A DNA stretch of 64,000 nt from an uncultured bacterium (GCA_937920515.1 CALEUG010000015.1:71382-135381), one strand, 5' to 3'; counted from the stretch's first letter, positions 9,364 through 44,611 are shown. Numbers and translations: made by a program. Notes: generated from the letters alone by a model not told the origin.

Positions 9364-9480
9364 CTCTCATCCAGAGAGGCAGAGGGTTAACGCGCCCGAA
9401 GAAGCCCGGCAACCTGCCCCCGGTGGGGCAAGGTGCCAAAAGCGTTGAGTCCTGGCTCCGGTCGGGACGAAAGATGAGAG
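9364..9480 (+). promoter_or_regulatory. SAM-I (S-box) riboswitch aptamer
   Basis: CTCTCATCcAGAGAGGCAGAGGG...GCCCGAAGAAGCCCGGCAACC...AAGGTGCCAAAAGCG...GAAAGATGAGAG matches the S-box consensus: the P1 stem CTCTCATC/GATGAGAG, the kink-turn GA, and the CCCGGCAACC and GGUGCCAA boxes. It lies 190 nt upstream of the MAT start codon. The downstream CUCCUCUC could pair with the 3' strand of P1, suggesting translational control, as there is no U-tract. Confidence 0.85.
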
Positions 9481-9669: not shown

Positions 9670-10869
9670 ATGTCTGGATACTATTTTGAGGTCCGCGAGG
9701 GACGGGATTTTCTGGCCGAAGAGATGCCCGTGGAAATCGTGGAGCGCAAGGGCAAGGGGCATCCGGATTCGCTGTGCGACGGCGCGGCCGAAGAACTTTC
9801 GGTGGCTCTGTCTGAAATCTACCGGCAGAAGACAGGTAGAATTCTGCATCATAACGTGGACAAGGCGGTTCTGGTCGGCGGAAGTTCCAGCGCCGGGTTC
9901 GGTGGCGGAAAGGTGATTGAGCCGGCCCTGCTCTACATTGTCGGGCGGGCCACCTGCGAATACAACGGCAAAAGAATAATAGACGACGAGTCTATGAAAT
10001 ACCTTGAAACCAGGATTGCCGGCTGGATGATGGGGCAGGTGCCCCATCTGAGACAGGAACATTTCCAGGTAAAGCTCTTAATCAGGCAGGGCAGCGAGGA
10101 TTTAACCGCAATTTTCGCTGATGACGAAAAAGCGCCGCGGGCTAACGACACTTCCCTGGCCGTTGGCTACTCCCCCCTCAGCCAGCTGGAAACCCTGGTG
10201 CTGGAAACCGAGAAATTCTTGAACAGCCCGGAGGGCAAGCGCAAGTTCCCGGCCCTGGGCGAGGATATAAAGGTCATGGGTGTCCGCAAGGGCCAGTCCA
10301 TAAATCTAACCGTGGCCGCAGCCTTTGTGGCCTCGCTGGTCAAGGACAGGCCGGCTTACGACCTGATGAAAAAGGAAATAGCCGATTTTTTGCGGGCTGA
10401 ATTTGTCCGGCGTTATACATCCCGGCCGGTTGAGGTAATAATAAATAATGCCGATACTCCTGATTCGCAGTATCTAACCGTTACCGGCACCAGCGCCGAG
10501 GCCGGCGACGACGGCCAGGTGGGCCGGGGCAACCGGGCCAACGGGCTGATCACCCCCTACCGGCCGATGAGCCTGGAAGCCGTGGCCGGAAAGAACCCGG
10601 TCAGCCACGTCGGAAAGATTTACAGCATCATGAGCCAGCTGATTGCCGATAGAATAGTTCAGGCCATGCCAGAAGCCAGACAGGTCTATGTCTATATGGT
10701 CAGCCAGATAAACGAACCGATCGACGAGCCGCAGGCCCTCAACGTTGAGCTGTGGGGTCTGGAGGCGGACAGGGTCAGGGCCGAGGTCCGGAAAATTGCC
10801 GACGAAGTGCTGGGAAGCTGGCGTGAAATTCGCGATGGCTTCATGACCCACCGCTGGCCCATCTATTAA
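9670..10869 (+). CDS. Archaeal-type S-adenosylmethionine synthetase (methionine adenosyltransferase, PF01941 type)
   Basis: [53 protein letters not shown] and [51 protein letters not shown] are near-identical to the archaeal MAT signature blocks. A GGAGGT SD precedes the start. Confidence 0.9.
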
Positions 10870-13193
10870 ATAAAGAGGGATTTGAGGGCTTCCACGCCGG
10901 CCAGGCCGCTGTTTACCAGGTAACACCTTACCAGGTCCAGCAGGCGGCTGAAAAACATCCGCTGCATGGCCAGTTTGTCCTCGTTCACCACCAGAAGGTG
11001 CGGGTTAAAAAACGGCTGGGTCCTGGCCGAAAGCGACCTGACCGCGCCCGAAGGCTCCCCGCTTTCCAGGATTCTTAGGGCCTCTTCCTTGCCGAGCTCC
11101 ACCACCGCCGGCGAGACCCGGTCGTTTCGCAGAATCACCAGGCTCTTGAGGTGAGTTCTCCTGGTATAGCCCTGTGGTCCGGCCAGCCAGTTAGGGTCGA
11201 GCATGGCCCGGGCTTCCCCCGAGGCCCGGAAGCAATAGGGCGCGCCCTTGTCCAGCCGGCATTCATCCTGAATCGGGCAGGTGGGGTCGGTGCAGTCCTC
11301 GCGCCTGGTAACCACATTCTCGCACTTGCTGTGGTCAAAAAGCCTGGCCAGCTTATCGTGAAGTTCAACGGTGCTGGTCGGGATGTAGAATTTTCTCTCG
11401 ACGGCGTCGGCCACTGCCCGGTTGCCCGAAAAGCGAACGAATACGATCTCGTTGCTCTGGGCCTGGACTTTCGGCAGCCTGAGCAGGTCAAAAAACAGCT
11501 CGGTCTTTTTCGTCCCGGGTTGCCCCACTAAGAACAGACCGTTTCCGTCCAGCCCGACGGCCATGCCCCGCACTGCATTTATGCCCAGGTGCTCCGAGGA
11601 ATCAAGAACCATGCCCAGGGCCAGTTTCCTCAAAGGCCCGTAATTGTCGGTGTTGACCAGGATGCCCGTCCGGGTCTCCGGGTGGTAATAAGCCCGCGGT
11701 TCTCTGCCCGGCACGTTGTCCACCGCGTAAATCACGGCGTGCGGTTCGAGCCCTGCTTCAATCTGGCCCGGGAACCAGTTTTCCACCCAGAAATCGTAAA
11801 GATGGCCGACGTTGGTCCTGAGCTGGACGATGGTTCCGTTGATGTTGGCGTTCCACTCGTAGTAGTTGTCGTAACCCAGGTGGGCTTCCATCTCGGCCAC
11901 CAGGGCGTCTCTCAGCTTGCCCTCGGCCACCACTTCCACCGGCACCGATTTTTTGACCTTCGTCACGTAATTTTGCAGATAGATTTTCTTAACCTTTTTG
12001 GCCGTCTTAAGCCGGCTCATGGCCTCGGCTATCCGGTCCATTCCCTTTTCCAGGTTTTCCATGGAGGTGGCGTAGGAAATCCGGATGTAATTGTCAGCCC
12101 CGAAAGCGTCTCCGGGAACGATGGCCACCCGGGCTTCCCGCAGCAGGTAATAGGCCAGCCCGTAGGAATTCCTGATCTGAATGCCTCCGGCCTCTTTGCC
12201 GTAGTAGGAACTCACGTTTGGGAACAGGTAAAAAGCGCCCTGGGGCTTGAAGCAGGAAATTCCCGGAATTTGCTGCAGCCTCATCAGCACGTAGTTCCGC
12301 CTTCTCTGGAACTCGGCGGCCATGCGGTTAACTTCATACTGCGGCCCGGCCAGGGCTTCGACGCTGGCTTTCTGCGATATGGAGCAGGCGTTGGAAGTGG
12401 TGTGGCTCTGGATCTTGCTCATGGCGCTGATGATCTCGGCCGGCCCGGCCGCATAGCCTATTCTCCAGCCGGTCATGGAGTAGCTCTTGGAAACGCCGTT
12501 GACAATGATGGTCTTCTTTTTCAGGTCTTCGCCCAGGGAGGCAAAGCTCACAAACTGAAACCCGTCGTAGACCAGGCGGCTGTAGATCTCGTCGGCAATG
12601 ATGTAAATATCTTCTTTGCGGAGGACCTCGGCCAGGGCCAGAAGCTGCTCCCTGGTGTATGTGGCCCCGGTCGGGTTGCTGGGATTGTTCAGAACCAGAG
12701 CCCGGGTCGACGGGGAGATTGCGGCCTTCAGCTGCTCGGGAGTGAGCAAGAAGCCGTCCTCCTCCCGCGTGTCCACTATAACCGGCTTGCCCTTGGCCAG
12801 GTTCACGCACTCGGGATAGGTTACCCAGTATGGGGCCGGGATGATGACCTCGTCGCCTTCGTTGACGATGGCCTGAACCAGGTGGTAAAGGGAGCTCTTG
12901 GCCCCGCTGGAGACCAGGACTTCGTTGGGCTTGTAGTCCAGCCCGTAATCTTCCTTGAGCCTTTTACAGACCGCTTTTCTCAGCTCCGGGATACCGTCGT
13001 TTTCGGTGTACTTGGTGAAATTCTGCTCAATGGCTTTGACCGCCGCCGCCTTGACGTTTTCCGGAGTCGGGAAATCGGGTTCGCCCACGCTTAAATCAAT
13101 AACATCGATGCCCTCGGCCTTCATGGACCTGGCCTTGGCCGAAATCTTTAAGGTGGGAGAAGCTCCTATTTTGATTACTCTTTCTGAAACCAT
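10866..13193 (-). CDS. Fusion protein: class-I PLP aspartate/aromatic aminotransferase (aa 1-~395) plus a ~380-aa C-terminal domain with an HprK/PSRP-like P-loop and a Cys cluster
   Basis: The N-terminal half has SKSYSMTGWRIGY (Lys-PLP region) and the typical AspC layout. The C-terminal half contains RGMAVGLDGNGLFLVGQPGTKKTELFFDLL, which parallels the HprK core ...GVGVLITGDSGxGKSExxLEL, with the second Gly replaced by Lys. It also carries CENVVTRREDCTDPTCPIQDECRLDKGAPYC. The 3' end overlaps the convergent MAT gene by 4 nt. Confidence 0.75.
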   Translation of the reverse strand: MVSERVIKIGASPTLKISAKARSMKAEGIDVIDLSVGEPDFPTPENVKAAAVKAIEQNFTKYTENDGIPELRKAVCKRLKEDYGLDYKPNEVLVSSGAKSSLYHLVQAIVNEGDEVIIPAPYWVTYPECVNLAKGKPVIVDTREEDGFLLTPEQLKAAISPSTRALVLNNPSNPTGATYTREQLLALAEVLRKEDIYIIADEIYSRLVYDGFQFVSFASLGEDLKKKTIIVNGVSKSYSMTGWRIGYAAGPAEIISAMSKIQSHTTSNACSISQKASVEALAGPQYEVNRMAAEFQRRRNYVLMRLQQIPGISCFKPQGAFYLFPNVSSYYGKEAGGIQIRNSYGLAYYLLREARVAIVPGDAFGADNYIRISYATSMENLEKGMDRIAEAMSRLKTAKKVKKIYLQNYVTKVKKSVPVEVVAEGKLRDALVAEMEAHLGYDNYYEWNANINGTIVQLRTNVGHLYDFWVENWFPGQIEAGLEPHAVIYAVDNVPGREPRAYYHPETRTGILVNTDNYGPLRKLALGMVLDSSEHLGINAVRGMAVGLDGNGLFLVGQPGTKKTELFFDLLRLPKVQAQSNEIVFVRFSGNRAVADAVERKFYIPTSTVELHDKLARLFDHSKCENVVTRREDCTDPTCPIQDECRLDKGAPYCFRASGEARAMLDPNWLAGPQGYTRRTHLKSLVILRNDRVSPAVVELGKEEALRILESGEPSGAVRSLSARTQPFFNPHLLVVNEDKLAMQRMFFSRLLDLVRCYLVNSGLAGVEALKSLFI

Positions 13194-13223: not shown

Positions 13224-14651
13224 CTAGGATTTCTTTTCCTGAGGCTCGGGCCTGGCTTCGGTGGCAGAACCCAGTTTATCCCTCAGAAACCTGGTCAGGT
13301 CGGCCCCGGTCAGGGCCTTGAGCACTTCTGGCATCTGGGCCAGGACCTGGGTTACCTGGCCGGTAATCTGGTTGGTGCCCAGCCCCTTATCGCCTCCAAT
13401 GACCACGATTTTGTCCACCCTGGCCAGCGGTTCAGCCACGGCCCGGGCCAGCTCGGGCAGCACCTTGATGAAGCTTTCCAGCAGGGCGGCTTCGTTGTAC
13501 CTTTCCCAGGCCTGGGCTTTTTTCAGCATGGCCTCGGCCTCGGCCAGTCCGCGCAGCTTTATTTCATCTGCCTTGACCATGGCTTCAAGCTTCATGGCTT
13601 CGGCCTTGCCCTTGCCTTCGGCCATCAGCCGGATTTCTTCGGCCTCGGCTTCGGCCTGGATCTGGTACCTGCGGGCATCAGCCGGCTTCAGGACGTTGGC
13701 TTCCAGTTCTTTTTCCTTGCGTTTGATTTCCAGCTCTTCAATCTTGATGGCCTCTTCCTTTTCAATCTGTTTAACCCTGGCTTCTTCTTTCTTTATCTCC
13801 TGGCTGACCCGGGTGCGTTCCAGCTCATAGGAAAAATCGGCCTGGGCTTTTTTCTGGTTAACGAAGGTCTGGGACTCGGCTTTCTTGGCTTCGTTTTCCC
13901 ACTGGGCCCTGGCAATCTGGGCTTCCGCCTGCAGCCTGGCCACTTCGGCTTCTTTCCTGGCCTGGGACGACTTGATGATGGCTTCTTTCTCGGTTTCGGC
14001 CTGGGCGATGGCCGCATCCCTCTTGGCCGCGGCGATGACCGGCTTGCTCAGGGCGTCGATGTAGCCCTGGGTGTCGCTGATGTCTTTAAGAGAAAAGCTC
14101 AGAAGCACCAGGCCCATGCTGGCAAAATCTTCCTTGGCTGCCTGGACTACCCGTCTGGAAAATTCCTGCCGGCCGCGGTAGATTTCCTCGACCGTCATGG
14201 TCCCGATAACTTCCCGGACCTTGCCCTCCAGGACATTCATGGCCACGTCCCGGATACCTTCCTTGCCAGTGCCCAGGAATTGTTCGGCGGCCAGCCTTAT
14301 GGCCAGGTCGGTGGAATCCACCTTGACCTGGGCCGAGGCTTCGGCCAGGATGGGGATACCGCCGTGGGTCAGGACTTCCGGCGTCTTGATGTAAATGGTA
14401 ATGACTTCGAGGGGCAGGGTGTAGACTTTTTCTATGAACGGCCAGACAAAGGTACCGCCGCCCAGTTTATATCTATAGCCAACTTTCTTTTTCGTGCCGT
14501 CGGGCAGGGTTATGGTTCTCTTACGGCCTCCGGCGATGATCAGGGCTTCGTTCGGCCCGACCTTCCGGTATTGAGTGGCAAGGACCACTCCGATTATGGC
14601 CAGAAAAACGACTACGGCGCCGATAATTATTAGCCAGGTGGTTAAAGGCAT
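13224..14651 (-). CDS. Flotillin / SPFH (band-7) domain protein
   Basis: N-terminal TM segment, an SPFH core, and a long Ala/Glu-rich coiled-coil (EA repeats) characteristic of FloT/YqiK flotillins. Confidence 0.8.
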   Translation of the reverse strand: MPLTTWLIIIGAVVVFLAIIGVVLATQYRKVGPNEALIIAGGRKRTITLPDGTKKKVGYRYKLGGGTFVWPFIEKVYTLPLEVITIYIKTPEVLTHGGIPILAEASAQVKVDSTDLAIRLAAEQFLGTGKEGIRDVAMNVLEGKVREVIGTMTVEEIYRGRQEFSRRVVQAAKEDFASMGLVLLSFSLKDISDTQGYIDALSKPVIAAAKRDAAIAQAETEKEAIIKSSQARKEAEVARLQAEAQIARAQWENEAKKAESQTFVNQKKAQADFSYELERTRVSQEIKKEEARVKQIEKEEAIKIEELEIKRKEKELEANVLKPADARRYQIQAEAEAEEIRLMAEGKGKAEAMKLEAMVKADEIKLRGLAEAEAMLKKAQAWERYNEAALLESFIKVLPELARAVAEPLARVDKIVVIGGDKGLGTNQITGQVTQVLAQMPEVLKALTGADLTRFLRDKLGSATEARPEPQEKKS

Positions 14652-40636: not shown

Positions 40637-42085
40637 ATGAAGCAAAAGCTTGACCAGAAACAGGTGCAGAAGCTGGTGATGGCTCCCGCCCTCCAGCAGG
40701 CCATCCGTCTGCTCCAGCTGACCAACCTGGAATTGCAGGAAGTTATCAACCAGGAGCTCGAAGAAAACCCTTTGCTTGAGACTGAAGACGAAGTGTCGCA
40801 GGAAACGGTTGCCTCCCTTCAAGCGGGCGAAGAAGCGAAAGACGAGGAGGAGCTGGAGCAGGGCGGCACTGCCCCCGATGAGTTCGACGAAATAATTTTT
40901 GCTGCCGGTTTCCAGGATTATTTTGACGAAGAAATTCCATATTCCGGGCATGGAGATAAGGACCTGGTGCCTTTTGAAAACCTGGTTTCCCGGAGGCCGT
41001 CGCTCTGGGACCACCTGAGCTGGCAGGCCGGCCTGACTTTTTTTGGAGAGGAGGAGCTGGAAATAGCCGAATTCATCATCGGCAACCTGAACGACGATGG
41101 TTACCTGACCATAAGCCCGGAAGAGATTGCTTCCCGCCTGCAGAAACCGCTGGAAAAGGTGGAAGCGGTCAGGGAAAAAATAAAGATGTTTGACCCCCCG
41201 GGCTGCGGTAGCCTGGTCCTGAGCGAAGCCCTGCTGGCCCAGATGGATTCGCTCAACCTGCAGGACGAGGTGGCCCGCAGGATTATCAGCGATTACCTTC
41301 CTTACCTGCAGAAATCTGACCATCAGGAACTGGCCCGCCTGCTCAATTTGAGCCTGATTGAGTTGAAACTTCACCTTGACCTGATCAAGAACCTGGATCC
41401 GGCCCCCGGGCACAAGTACAGCGAGGACCGCGACCTCTACGTGGTGCCCGATATCTTCGTGGTCAAGGAAGACGGGGAGTGGAAGATATACCTGAACGAA
41501 GAAGGCCTGCCCCGTCTGCGCCTTAACCAGTATTACCGCCAGCTTATCGAGTCCGGGCTCAAGGAAGACCGGGAGACCACCCGCTTTCTCAAGGATAAGA
41601 TGAAAAGGGCACTGTGGTTCATCCGCAGCCTGGACCAGAGAAACCGGACGATTTACCGGGTGGCCAGGTACATAGTGGACCGCCAGAAGGATTTTTTGGA
41701 GCAGGGCCTGGACCACATCAAACCGATGACCCTGCTGGAGGTGGCCCGGGAACTCGGGCTGCACGAATCGACCGTCGGGCGGGTGGTGGCCAACAAGTAC
41801 ATGATGACACCCCTGGGTCTCTATCCCCTGAAGTTCTTCTTCCACAAATCGCTCAGCGGGACCTACGGGGAGGAAGTCTCTTCGCTCCGCATCAAGGAGA
41901 GGATAAGGAAATTAATTGAGAACGAGGACCGCAGCAACCCCTTGAGCGACGACGAAATTGTTGATATATTATCCAGAGAAAACATTCAGATTGCCCGGAG
42001 GACCGTGGCCAAGTACCGGGGGCAGCTTGACATTCCGCCTTCTCATATAAGAAAGAAGAAATTTATGATGGAGGAAGCAACATGA
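40637..42085 (+). CDS. rpoN: RNA polymerase sigma-54 factor
   Basis: Gln/Leu-rich region I, a core-binding region, and the C-terminal RpoN box ARRTVAKYR. Confidence 0.95.
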   Translation: MKQKLDQKQVQKLVMAPALQQAIRLLQLTNLELQEVINQELEENPLLETEDEVSQETVASLQAGEEAKDEEELEQGGTAPDEFDEIIFAAGFQDYFDEEIPYSGHGDKDLVPFENLVSRRPSLWDHLSWQAGLTFFGEEELEIAEFIIGNLNDDGYLTISPEEIASRLQKPLEKVEAVREKIKMFDPPGCGSLVLSEALLAQMDSLNLQDEVARRIISDYLPYLQKSDHQELARLLNLSLIELKLHLDLIKNLDPAPGHKYSEDRDLYVVPDIFVVKEDGEWKIYLNEEGLPRLRLNQYYRQLIESGLKEDRETTRFLKDKMKRALWFIRSLDQRNRTIYRVARYIVDRQKDFLEQGLDHIKPMTLLEVARELGLHESTVGRVVANKYMMTPLGLYPLKFFFHKSLSGTYGEEVSSLRIKERIRKLIENEDRSNPLSDDEIVDILSRENIQIARRTVAKYRGQLDIPPSHIRKKKFMMEEAT

Positions 42086-42606
42086 TCGTCAATTTTACTG
42101 CCCGGCGTACCGAGCTGACGGAAGAAATTAAAGAATACTGCCAGAAAAGGCTGGACAGAATGGAGAAGATTTTAAGAGACATTCTTCAGATCGATATAAT
42201 TCTGAGCGAGCAACGCAGCCGGAAAAAAGTTGACCTGCAGGTCAAGCGACGCGGTGAGGATTTTGTCATCTCTGTGGAAACCAACGATGTCTTCAATTCC
42301 CTGAACCAGGCCTTCGACAGCCTGGAGAAAAAAATAGTCAAGGAAAGAAGCAAAATGATACAGAGAAGGCGGAGGGCGGCCGGTCGGGAAGAGTCGCTGA
42401 CCGGGCTGGAGACGGTTGAACCTGCTCCGCGTCTGCTGCGCCTTCCGTATTACTCGGACAAGCCGATCAGCATCCAGGAAGCTCTGCTGCAGCTGGAAGA
42501 GGGCAAGAAAGAAGTTTTTCTGTTTCGCAAGGAAGGCAGCGAAAGCTGGGCTGCCGTTTTCCGCAGAAAAGACGGCCAGGTTGCCCTGGTTGATCCAGAA
42601 GCATAA
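42082..42606 (+). CDS. hpf: Ribosome hibernation-promoting factor (long form)
   Basis: MIVNFTARRTELTEEIKEYCQKRLDRMEKI... is a RaiA/HPF fold, plus a C-terminal extension. Classic position after rpoN. Confidence 0.85.
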   Translation: MIVNFTARRTELTEEIKEYCQKRLDRMEKILRDILQIDIILSEQRSRKKVDLQVKRRGEDFVISVETNDVFNSLNQAFDSLEKKIVKERSKMIQRRRRAAGREESLTGLETVEPAPRLLRLPYYSDKPISIQEALLQLEEGKKEVFLFRKEGSESWAAVFRRKDGQVALVDPEA

Positions 42607-42649
42607 CATATAGAGGAATTGAGTAAAAATAGAAAACTGAGCGAAGGAG

Positions 42650-43123
42650 TTGGCCGCGGTGAGATTGTCGAACATCATCAAGGAAAAAAACATTCTGCTG
42701 GAAATGAAGGCCCAGAAAAAGGATGAGGCCCTGGCTGAACTGGCCACCCATCTGAAGAAGCAGAAGCTAATCAATCACGAGAAAGAAATAATAGAAAAAC
42801 TTTTGCAGCGGGAGGCGCTGGGCAGCACCGCCCTGGGTGAAGGTATAGCCATTCCTCACTGCAAGGCCAGGGGAATCAAGAGCCCCATCCTGATGGTGGG
42901 CATCTCCCGCAACGGGGTTAATTTCGAATCTCCCGACGGGCAACCGGTCAAAGTTTTTTTCCTGCTGATCACTTCACCCGATGACCCCAGCCTTAATCTT
43001 CAGATCCTGGCCCTGATCGCCCAGCTGGTTAAAAAGTCTCCCGGGCTCAAATCAAGGCTGCTGGCAGCTGAGGATGTCGGGGAAGTCCTGGAAATTATAA
43101 GAGAGCAGGAAGAAAAAGCCTGA
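42650..43123 (+). CDS. ptsN: PTS IIA-Ntr nitrogen regulatory protein
   Basis: EIIA(Fru/Ntr) fold with the phosphorylatable His in GEGIAIPHCK. Confidence 0.8.
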   Translation: MAAVRLSNIIKEKNILLEMKAQKKDEALAELATHLKKQKLINHEKEIIEKLLQREALGSTALGEGIAIPHCKARGIKSPILMVGISRNGVNFESPDGQPVKVFFLLITSPDDPSLNLQILALIAQLVKKSPGLKSRLLAAEDVGEVLEIIREQEEKA

Positions 43124-43764
43124 TGGCCGCCGGCAAAACTGGAAAATCCAGGGGGCAGCCCGGGAAGGGCAGGCCGAACCGACCCGGGACTAATGCTGCT
43201 TTTTCAGGCGCGGGGAGTTCGCCTCAGGTGGTTATTTCCGCCGGCCTGCTGAAAATATTCGGGGTGGGCACCCTGATCATCGGCGACAGCGGTGTGGGCA
43301 AGAGCGAGAGCTCGCTGGAACTAATCGCCCGCGGTCATAAATTTGTCTCCGACGACGTGGTGGAAATTTTCCGGGACGAAAAAGGCCTTCTCCACGGCCG
43401 TTCTCCCCGGCTGACCAGGAATTTCATGGAAATAAGGGGGCTGGGGATTATCAACATCAAGGAGATTTTTGGAGCCAGGGCCATCCTGGAAGAGACCCCG
43501 GTCGACCTGGTTATCAGGCTCAAAAAGTGGAGCAAAAGGATGGAAATTGACCGGCTCGGCCTGAAATTCCCCGAGGACTTTCGGCTGGCCGGGATGAGCA
43601 TTCCCCAGTTACATATCCCGGTGGCACCCGGCCGTAATATCGCCACCCTGATTGAAGTGGCCTGTCGGGTATTTTCTCTGAGGAAAAAAGGTTACGAAGC
43701 CGCCCAGGACATCGTCCGGCGGCTGGACAGGAAACTGGCCAGGAAGAATGAACAATCATCGTAA
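43123..43764 (+). CDS. hprK: HPr kinase/phosphorylase, short form (kinase domain only)
   Basis: GVGTLIIGDSGVGKSESSLELIARGHKFVSDD is the HprK P-loop and core. No N-terminal regulatory domain; the N-terminal ~40 aa of the ORF are low-complexity, so the start may lie further downstream. Confidence 0.8.
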   Translation: MAAGKTGKSRGQPGKGRPNRPGTNAAFSGAGSSPQVVISAGLLKIFGVGTLIIGDSGVGKSESSLELIARGHKFVSDDVVEIFRDEKGLLHGRSPRLTRNFMEIRGLGIINIKEIFGARAILEETPVDLVIRLKKWSKRMEIDRLGLKFPEDFRLAGMSIPQLHIPVAPGRNIATLIEVACRVFSLRKKGYEAAQDIVRRLDRKLARKNEQSS

Positions 43765-44611
43765 AAGCACAGACTTTATCGTGGTCACCGGCCTGTCCGG
43801 TTCCGGCAAGACCGTGGTCAGCCGGTTTCTGGAAGATATGGGCTATTACTGCGTAGATAACCTGCCGGCCAAGTTAATACCCGAGCTGGTTGACCTGTGG
43901 CTCAGAAAAAAAGTGGAAATCGACCGGATGGCTCTGGTGATTGATATCCGGGAGCCCAGGTTCCTGACCGAATTCCCGGACATAGTCAGGCAGCTAAAGG
44001 TCAAGCCGTTTCTCATCTTTCTGGAAGCGACGGATGAAGCCCTGGTCAAAAGGTTCAGCGAAAGCCGCCGCCCGCATCCCCTGGCCAGAAACAAGTCGGT
44101 CCTCTCCGGGGTCAGGCTGGAGAGAAGAAAACTGGCCCCGATCAAGGATATGGCCGATGAGGTCATAGATACCACCGGCCTGACCATCTCCCGGCTCAAG
44201 GAGCAGGTATTTGAACGGATTTTAAGGAAAAAGCAGCATCGGCTTCAGGTCTACGTTATCAGCTTTGGCTATAAGCACGGTTTGCCGCTGGATTCCGACC
44301 TTGTTTTTGACACCAGGTTTCTGCCCAATCCTTATTACCTGGACAGCCTGCGCCAGCTCGATGGCCGGAACAAGAAGGTCCGGGACTTTGTCCTGAACTC
44401 GAATGAGACCAGGGCTTTTCTGGACAGGCTCTACGATTTCGTTGATTACCTTCTGCCCGGGTTTCTGAAGGAGGGCAAGAGCAGTTTGACCATATCCGTG
44501 GGCTGCACCGGCGGCCGGCACCGCTCGGTGGTCATTGCCGAAGCTCTTAAGAACCATCTGAAGACCAGGAAAGTGGCGGTAAAAATAATTCACCGGGATA
44601 TTTATAAGTAA
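43748..44611 (+). CDS. rapZ: RNase adapter protein RapZ (YhbJ)
   Basis: P-loop VVTGLSGSGKT and the C-terminal RapZ region (SVGCTGGRHRSV). Confidence 0.85.
   Translation: MNNHRKSTDFIVVTGLSGSGKTVVSRFLEDMGYYCVDNLPAKLIPELVDLWLRKKVEIDRMALVIDIREPRFLTEFPDIVRQLKVKPFLIFLEATDEALVKRFSESRRPHPLARNKSVLSGVRLERRKLAPIKDMADEVIDTTGLTISRLKEQVFERILRKKQHRLQVYVISFGYKHGLPLDSDLVFDTRFLPNPYYLDSLRQLDGRNKKVRDFVLNSNETRAFLDRLYDFVDYLLPGFLKEGKSSLTISVGCTGGRHRSVVIAEALKNHLKTRKVAVKIIHRDIYK

Follow-up and report, generated by a model that had tools for sequence, protein, structure and literature searches.

One gene in the 64,000-nucleotide stretch of bacterial DNA analysed here (the window) encodes an aspartate aminotransferase (AspAT) joined to a copy of PEP carboxykinase (PEPCK) that has been shortened and remodelled, and not to an HPr kinase. 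The added module, which we call PCKL, is a two-lobed homologue of ATP-dependent PEPCK. It repeatedly accompanies true PEPCK, as a neighbouring gene product in bacteria and as part of one fused protein in archaea. The AspAT-PCKL fusion is conserved across a whole bacterial class, and a relative is encoded in 344 species genomes. We do not read the module as a protein kinase of the HprK type, and no link between it and methionine/SAM metabolism could be demonstrated.

Architecture of the fusion gene

The first-pass annotation had described a 775-residue product made of a complete aminotransferase and ~380 extra residues, and this is what the ORF holds (Table 1): it has an ATG start, 775 codons and a stop, and its product is a class Ib AspAT followed by ~380 further residues. 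At the junction there is neither a linker nor a stop codon, and the homologue of the PEPCK R65 loop starts ~10 residues past the last helix of the AspAT half. The occurrence of the same architecture in other genomes, suggested as a check, proved real and conserved in ~60-80 Aminicenantes genomes, and the family libraries and literature searched contained no description of it, in agreement with the initial impression.

The N-terminal half is a genuine relative of AspATs. PF00155 covers aa 30-388 (E = 1.5e-83; profile positions 2-361 of 361), and class Ib AspATs (S. meliloti AatB, 6F35; Thermus, 1BJW; Arabidopsis PAT, 5WMH) align end to end with the first 395 aa (E = 1e-113 to 1e-95), the best PDB relatives being 6f35 AatB (E = 1.7e-113), 6f77, 1j32, 5wmh and 1bjw. 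The fusion has in common with class Ib aspartate/prephenate aminotransferases the motifs SKxxxMTGWR and NPSNPTG and the GAK lysine; the latter is K99 of the sequence SSGAKSS, has its counterpart in the GAK of 6f35 and is presumably the distal-carboxylate binder of subgroup Ib aminotransferases (K109 in Thermus). The top NCBIfam matches are aspartate transaminase models, both scoring under their equivalog cut-offs (NF004769, 466 versus 617 bits; NF041091, 429 versus 550 bits), so that the sequence does not settle which substrates are used or whether prephenate may be among them. Whereas the characterised class Ib members are all single-domain proteins of ~385-410 aa, the fusion adds the 380-aa PCKL extension.

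Table 1. Features of the fusion gene, its product and its surroundings in the window (aa, residues of the fusion protein)
Feature	Position	Strand	Basis or remark
SAM-I riboswitch	9364-9480	(+)	RF00162, 58.9 bits
MAT gene, archaeal-type	9670..10869	(+)	PF01941; behind SAM-I riboswitch
Complete fusion gene, AspAT + PCKL module	10866..13193	(-)	Same continuous ORF in ~60-80 Aminicenantes genomes
Class Ib AspAT domain, aa 1-395	12009..13193	(-)	PF00155, NCBIfam and PDB matches
PLP-Lys motif SKSYSMTGWR, aa 235-244	12462-12491	(-)	Motif position in translation
PCKL module, aa 397-775, two-lobed mini-PEPCK paralogue	10869..12005	(-)	Profile homology to PEPCK
R65-loop homologue LQNYVTKVKKSVP, aa 406-418	11940..11978	(-)	Global hhalign; archaeal PEPCK NYVSTVKNRSA
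YGPLRK, aa 518-523 (= PEPCK Y207-G-G-E-M-K212-K213)	11625..11642	(-)	hhalign mapping, frequencies
VRGM, aa 541-544	11562..11573	(-)	Arg542 at position of PEPCK Mn2+ ligand His232 (conserved His of HprK)
P-loop GQPGTKKTE, aa 557-565	11499..11525	(-)	K563, T564 = K254, T255; K562 replaces G253
SNE, aa 580-582	11448..11456	(-)	N581, E582 = D268, D269 (kinase-2 / HprK ADD motif)
ERKFYIPT, aa 599-606 (= E282-G-G-C-Y286-A-K288-T)	11376..11399	(-)	Pro605 replaces K288
C624-E-N-V (= E311-N312-V313), then inserted Cys cluster	11232..11324	(-)	Spacing, conservation counts
LVNSG, aa 759-763 (= PEPCK LVNTG, N441 invariant)	10905..10919	(-)	hhalign mapping
Flotillin/SPFH gene	13224..14651	(-)	PF01145, E = 2.9e-30; weak Flot match
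rpoN-hpf-ptsN-hprK-rapZ cluster	40637-44611		30 kb from fusion
HprK gene of the window	43123-43764		PF07475, E = 1.2e-56

Homology of PCKL to PEPCK and its remodelled active site

The C-terminal 384 aa, an uncharacterised module, match no Pfam or NCBIfam family and no PDB sequence; PF01293 gave no match to the window protein at E <= 1 and matched one of 40 relatives (E = 0.094), homology to PEPCK emerging only at the profile-profile level. With hhalign, a 161-sequence PCKL profile matched a 113-sequence PEPCK profile at 99.1% probability (E = 1.6e-18, 317 columns) and A1 matched E. coli PckA at E = 4.8e-5; homology to ATP-dependent PEPCK (PckA, PF01293, EC 4.1.1.49; T. cruzi 1II2, E. coli 1AQ2) spans 317-357 columns, and canonical PEPCK domains give weak matches to the PCKL HMM. 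Both lobes of the PEPCK fold, the N-terminal substrate lobe and the P-loop nucleotide lobe, are present, and the motifs run collinearly: R65 loop, Y-G-x-x-K/R, His232 strand, P-loop Lys/Thr, D268-D269 strand, E282...Y286, E311-N312-V313 and LVNTG. The AF2 pLDDT of 90.2 counts as evidence for the fold, the full-length model giving no information on inter-domain or inter-protein contacts. At ~380 aa versus 540-610 for PEPCK, PCKL lacks ~50 N-terminal residues, a ~30-residue internal segment (66-93) and the ~100-residue adenine-binding C-terminal subdomain (E. coli ~445-540, including R449 and T455); the hhalign alignment stops at PckA 442-460, and the subdomain is missing because the protein ends 12 residues after LVNSG. 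Unlike PckA, PCKL is fused to AspAT and often has a complete PEPCK encoded beside it. A further protein, compared by description, is NDUEG2 (8J9H), a PEPCK-like accessory subunit of Euglena respiratory complex I, which is eukaryotic and belongs to a membrane complex in an unrelated context.

Residue equivalences, taken from global hhalign mapping to PEPCK and per-clade frequencies, show that the active site of the fused clade is coherently remodelled. R65 is replaced by Ser (Ser416; stand-alone relatives retain Arg), Y207 by Asn (Asn517, next to an invariant Tyr518), H232 by Arg (Arg542; 39 of 47 AspAT-fused sequences), G253 by Lys, D268 by Asn and K288 by Pro, and no constraint is seen at the R333 position (H/Q/Y/R/M/F/S). 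The clade keeps Lys254 and Thr255, with Asp or Glu as the acid at Asp269 and a basic residue (R522) at Lys212, and has gained an invariant, family-specific basic pair (R600-K601) and a Cys4-5 cluster. The annotated exchange of the second P-loop Gly for Lys is correct, with K562 at the G253 position; measured against the kinase-1a pattern G-x-x-G-x-G-K-[ST], the clade has K, R or N at G253, and its Lys and Thr are at least 97% conserved. The same degree of conservation holds in Aminicenantes for R542, G543 and M544, and among the fusions of this group for 87 of the 384 module positions, those of the P-loop and the Cys cluster and R542 among them. K523 occupies the K213 position, where most fusions have Ser and only those of the Saccharicenans clade have Lys. 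The Mn2+ ligand set K213, H232 and D269 does not occur in PCKL of this clade, nor does the oxaloacetate/PEP/CO2 ligand set R65, Y207 and R333, all three of which are kept in stand-alone relatives. The resulting signatures are RYYKSHGKSDDRR in stand-alone PCKL and SNYR(S/K)RKKTN(D/E)Px in the window's clade, the derived one being identical with or without an adjacent PEPCK.

The downstream Cys cluster has the spacing first reported (C624-x9-C634-x4-C639-x5-C645-x8-C654) and is conserved in Aminicenantes, where C634, C639, C645 and C654 occur in 60 of 61 fusions and C624 in 58 of 61. Neither stand-alone nor archaeal modules have this insertion, which probably forms a metal site and is placed where the PEPCK loop leads to R333.

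Forms of PCKL and their genomic neighbours

PCKL occurs alone, fused to AspAT, and, in archaea such as Asgard and Bathyarchaeia, fused to a genuine PEPCK. Stand-alone members retain R65, Y207, K212, H232, K254, T255, D268, D269 and R333, nearly the whole PEPCK catalytic set, which argues that the family was ancestrally an enzyme. All 66 long (>750 aa) archaeal or bacterial PEPCKs carry an N-terminal PCKL. In the archaeal proteins of ~890 aa (Helarchaeota, Lokiarchaeota, Bathyarchaeia and others), the same module scores 200-290 bits against the PCKL HMM and shares the derived Y-R-S-R state at the K212 and H232 positions; it lies N-terminal to PEPCK_ATP, whereas PCKL of Aminicenantes lies C-terminal to AspAT. 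These archaeal modules have lost the ENV motif, have no Cys cluster and in about half of the members have lost the P-loop Lys. The proteins are annotated only as PEPCK, and no description of the extension was found in the literature searched.

In bacteria, PEPCK_ATP lies directly downstream of the fusion on the same strand at 27 of 74 Aminicenantes loci, and PEPCK is found near the fusion, together with ndk, in two other bacterial MAGs, L088 (Calditrichota) and L090. The adjacent PEPCKs are complete, retaining Y207, K212, K213, H232, K254, D268, D269, K288 and R333, and share ~40% identity with the PEPCK part of the archaeal fusions. A further 34 of the 74 loci have no adjacent PEPCK, and the window contains none, its lineage having MAT where others have PEPCK. 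That so many bacteria and archaea have PCKL beside or fused to true PEPCK suggests that oxaloacetate metabolism includes a component not yet described.

A co-directional flotillin gene lies 30 nt upstream of the fusion in the window, and flotillin directly precedes the fusion in every Aminicenantes locus with room for it and in the Calditrichota locus L088; it is the conserved neighbour and a probable operon partner. On the other side, the convergent, overlapping MAT gene with its SAM riboswitch is as first annotated, the two stop codons sharing TTAA at 10866-10869. The proposed connection to methionine regeneration from KMTB did not hold up. MAT adjoins the fusion at 13 of 74 loci, in the Saccharicenans subclade only and with a gap of 7 to ~360 nt in relatives, and is not a conserved partner, as flotillin and PEPCK are; because this neighbour is lineage-specific, the methionine idea is unsupported.

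Possible roles of the module

Because AspAT and PEPCK both make or use oxaloacetate, PCKL may be expected to work at the aspartate/oxaloacetate/PEP node. Most likely, to judge from the PEPCK often encoded next door, the replaced metal and substrate ligands and the loss of the P-loop Lys from archaeal copies, it does not act as a second PEPCK in this protein. We give just under an even chance to its being an accessory PEPCK paralogue that couples PEPCK to the transaminase. AspAT would then be joined covalently, almost without a linker, to a miniaturised PEPCK paralogue that binds phosphate/nucleotide or oxaloacetate/PEP and docks onto or regulates PEPCK, and by coupling PEPCK to the transaminase the module would hand over or sense labile oxaloacetate. 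We infer the docking or regulation purely from patterns of fusion, neighbourhood and residue loss. The loci that have no adjacent PEPCK count against an accessory role, as do the catalytic set retained by stand-alone members and the near invariance in Aminicenantes of E599-R600-K601, E625-N626, the Lys and Thr of the P-loop and the acidic residue at D269, a near invariance that would be equally expected of a site that is still catalytic.

Such a site is the basis of the rather unlikely alternative that the protein is truly bifunctional. PCKL would be a minimal catalytic PEPCK with a remodelled site that lacks the Mn site and the adenine pocket, possibly taking PPi, polyP or any NTP as donor, as HprK/P can, and either converting oxaloacetate from AspAT to PEP or fixing CO2 onto PEP and passing the oxaloacetate to AspAT to yield aspartate. 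This is consistent with the whole-length homology to PEPCK, with the catalytic residues retained by stand-alone relatives, with the conservation in Aminicenantes of K563/T564, acid 582, ERK and ENV (at least 97%) and with the Saccharicenans clade, in which K213 is matched by a Lys and the locus contains no PEPCK. Moreover, an intein adjoins the P-loop in P0189, and inteins tend to occupy functionally essential sites. Nevertheless, R65, Y207, H232 and K288 are replaced in this clade and the R333 position is free to vary, the adenine-binding subdomain is absent, and the archaeal PEPCK-fused copies have been retained despite losing the P-loop Lys and ENV. In addition, at the 27 of 74 Aminicenantes loci that have a complete PEPCK next to a fusion with the same signature, a second one would be redundant.

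It is improbable, but not negligibly so, that PCKL is a kinase or other enzyme acting on a different anionic metabolite tied to transamination, with catalysis by a cationic cleft (R522, R542, K562/K563, R600, K601) and the Cys-cluster metal site. The loss of the canonical oxaloacetate ligands and the conserved Cys cluster inserted beside the active-site loop would fit such a role, as would family-invariant residues that PEPCK does not have (W447-N448, T460-N461, H464, P484-H485, R600-K601, D666-P667-x-W669 and N730-P731). The stand-alone form is PEPCK-like at the residue level, however, and the gene context yields no candidate substrate, the recurrent metabolic partners being AspAT and PEPCK only.

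A far weaker candidate is the HprK/PSRP-like kinase fold proposed at first, under which PCKL would be a kinase/phosphorylase of proteins or peptides, either controlling the aminotransferase or serving in MAT-linked methionine salvage. The core string quoted for it, RGMAVGLDGNGLFLVGQPGTKKTELFFDLL, is present in the C-terminal part; its match to the HprK core has profile-level support within one superfamily, but the pairwise comparison (7 of 22 identities, E = 0.13) is not significant. PCKL and HprK match over 41 columns at the profile level (E = 6.4e-5), PDB HprK chains reach E ~0.005 over 55-70 residues, and 17 of 40 relatives have weak PF07475 matches (best E = 2.7e-6), the scores shown for distant relatives (17-21 bits) lying under the 33.3-bit cut-off. 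The window protein itself has no match to PF07475 or PF03618 (PSRP/PDRP, DUF299) at E <= 1. Since the folds of PEPCK and HprK are related, the C-terminal half does not belong to an unrelated family without similarity to HprK, and the fold assignment survives to that extent; the match to PEPCK, however, is much the stronger of the two and extends over both lobes, one of which, the substrate-binding N-lobe, has no counterpart in HprK. HprK/P (PF07475) and PCKL both lack a dedicated adenine pocket and correspond over ~40-150 residues, but only in PCKL is there a PEPCK N-lobe, which forms a cleft for small molecules, and PCKL lacks the HprK N-domain (PF02603). HprK was not the best structural neighbour, nor was the domain confined to the P-loop lobe. 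There is no PTS/HPr context, the neighbours of the fusion being flotillin and MAT or PEPCK, and the genuine HprK of this genome lies in its own cluster (Table 1); the overlap with MAT, which adjoins in one subclade, is not conserved. The fold and neighbourhood data thus largely refute this proposal. Least credible of all, to the point of being practically dismissed, is an artefact in which two genes were merged through a frameshift, assembly error or gene-calling run-through: many database entries are partial, but only because their contigs are short, and no support was seen, whereas a single uninterrupted ORF of 775-790 aa occurs at every sufficiently complete locus among 80 independent MAGs, 2 closed chromosomes included.

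With less confidence than we attach to the accessory role itself, we propose that PCKL is an unrecognised cross-domain component of the oxaloacetate node that assembles AspAT and PEPCK, or else a new minimal class of PEPCK. If the former is true, a degenerate PEPCK paralogue would build an AspAT/PEPCK complex for channelling or sensing oxaloacetate. The paralogue would be linked covalently to AspAT in bacteria, Aminicenantes among them, and to PEPCK in archaea, including Asgard and Bathyarchaeia, and the complex might be organised at flotillin microdomains. If the latter is true, stand-alone and fused PCKL would be minimal PEPCKs that lack the adenine pocket and Mn site and use a different phosphoryl donor.

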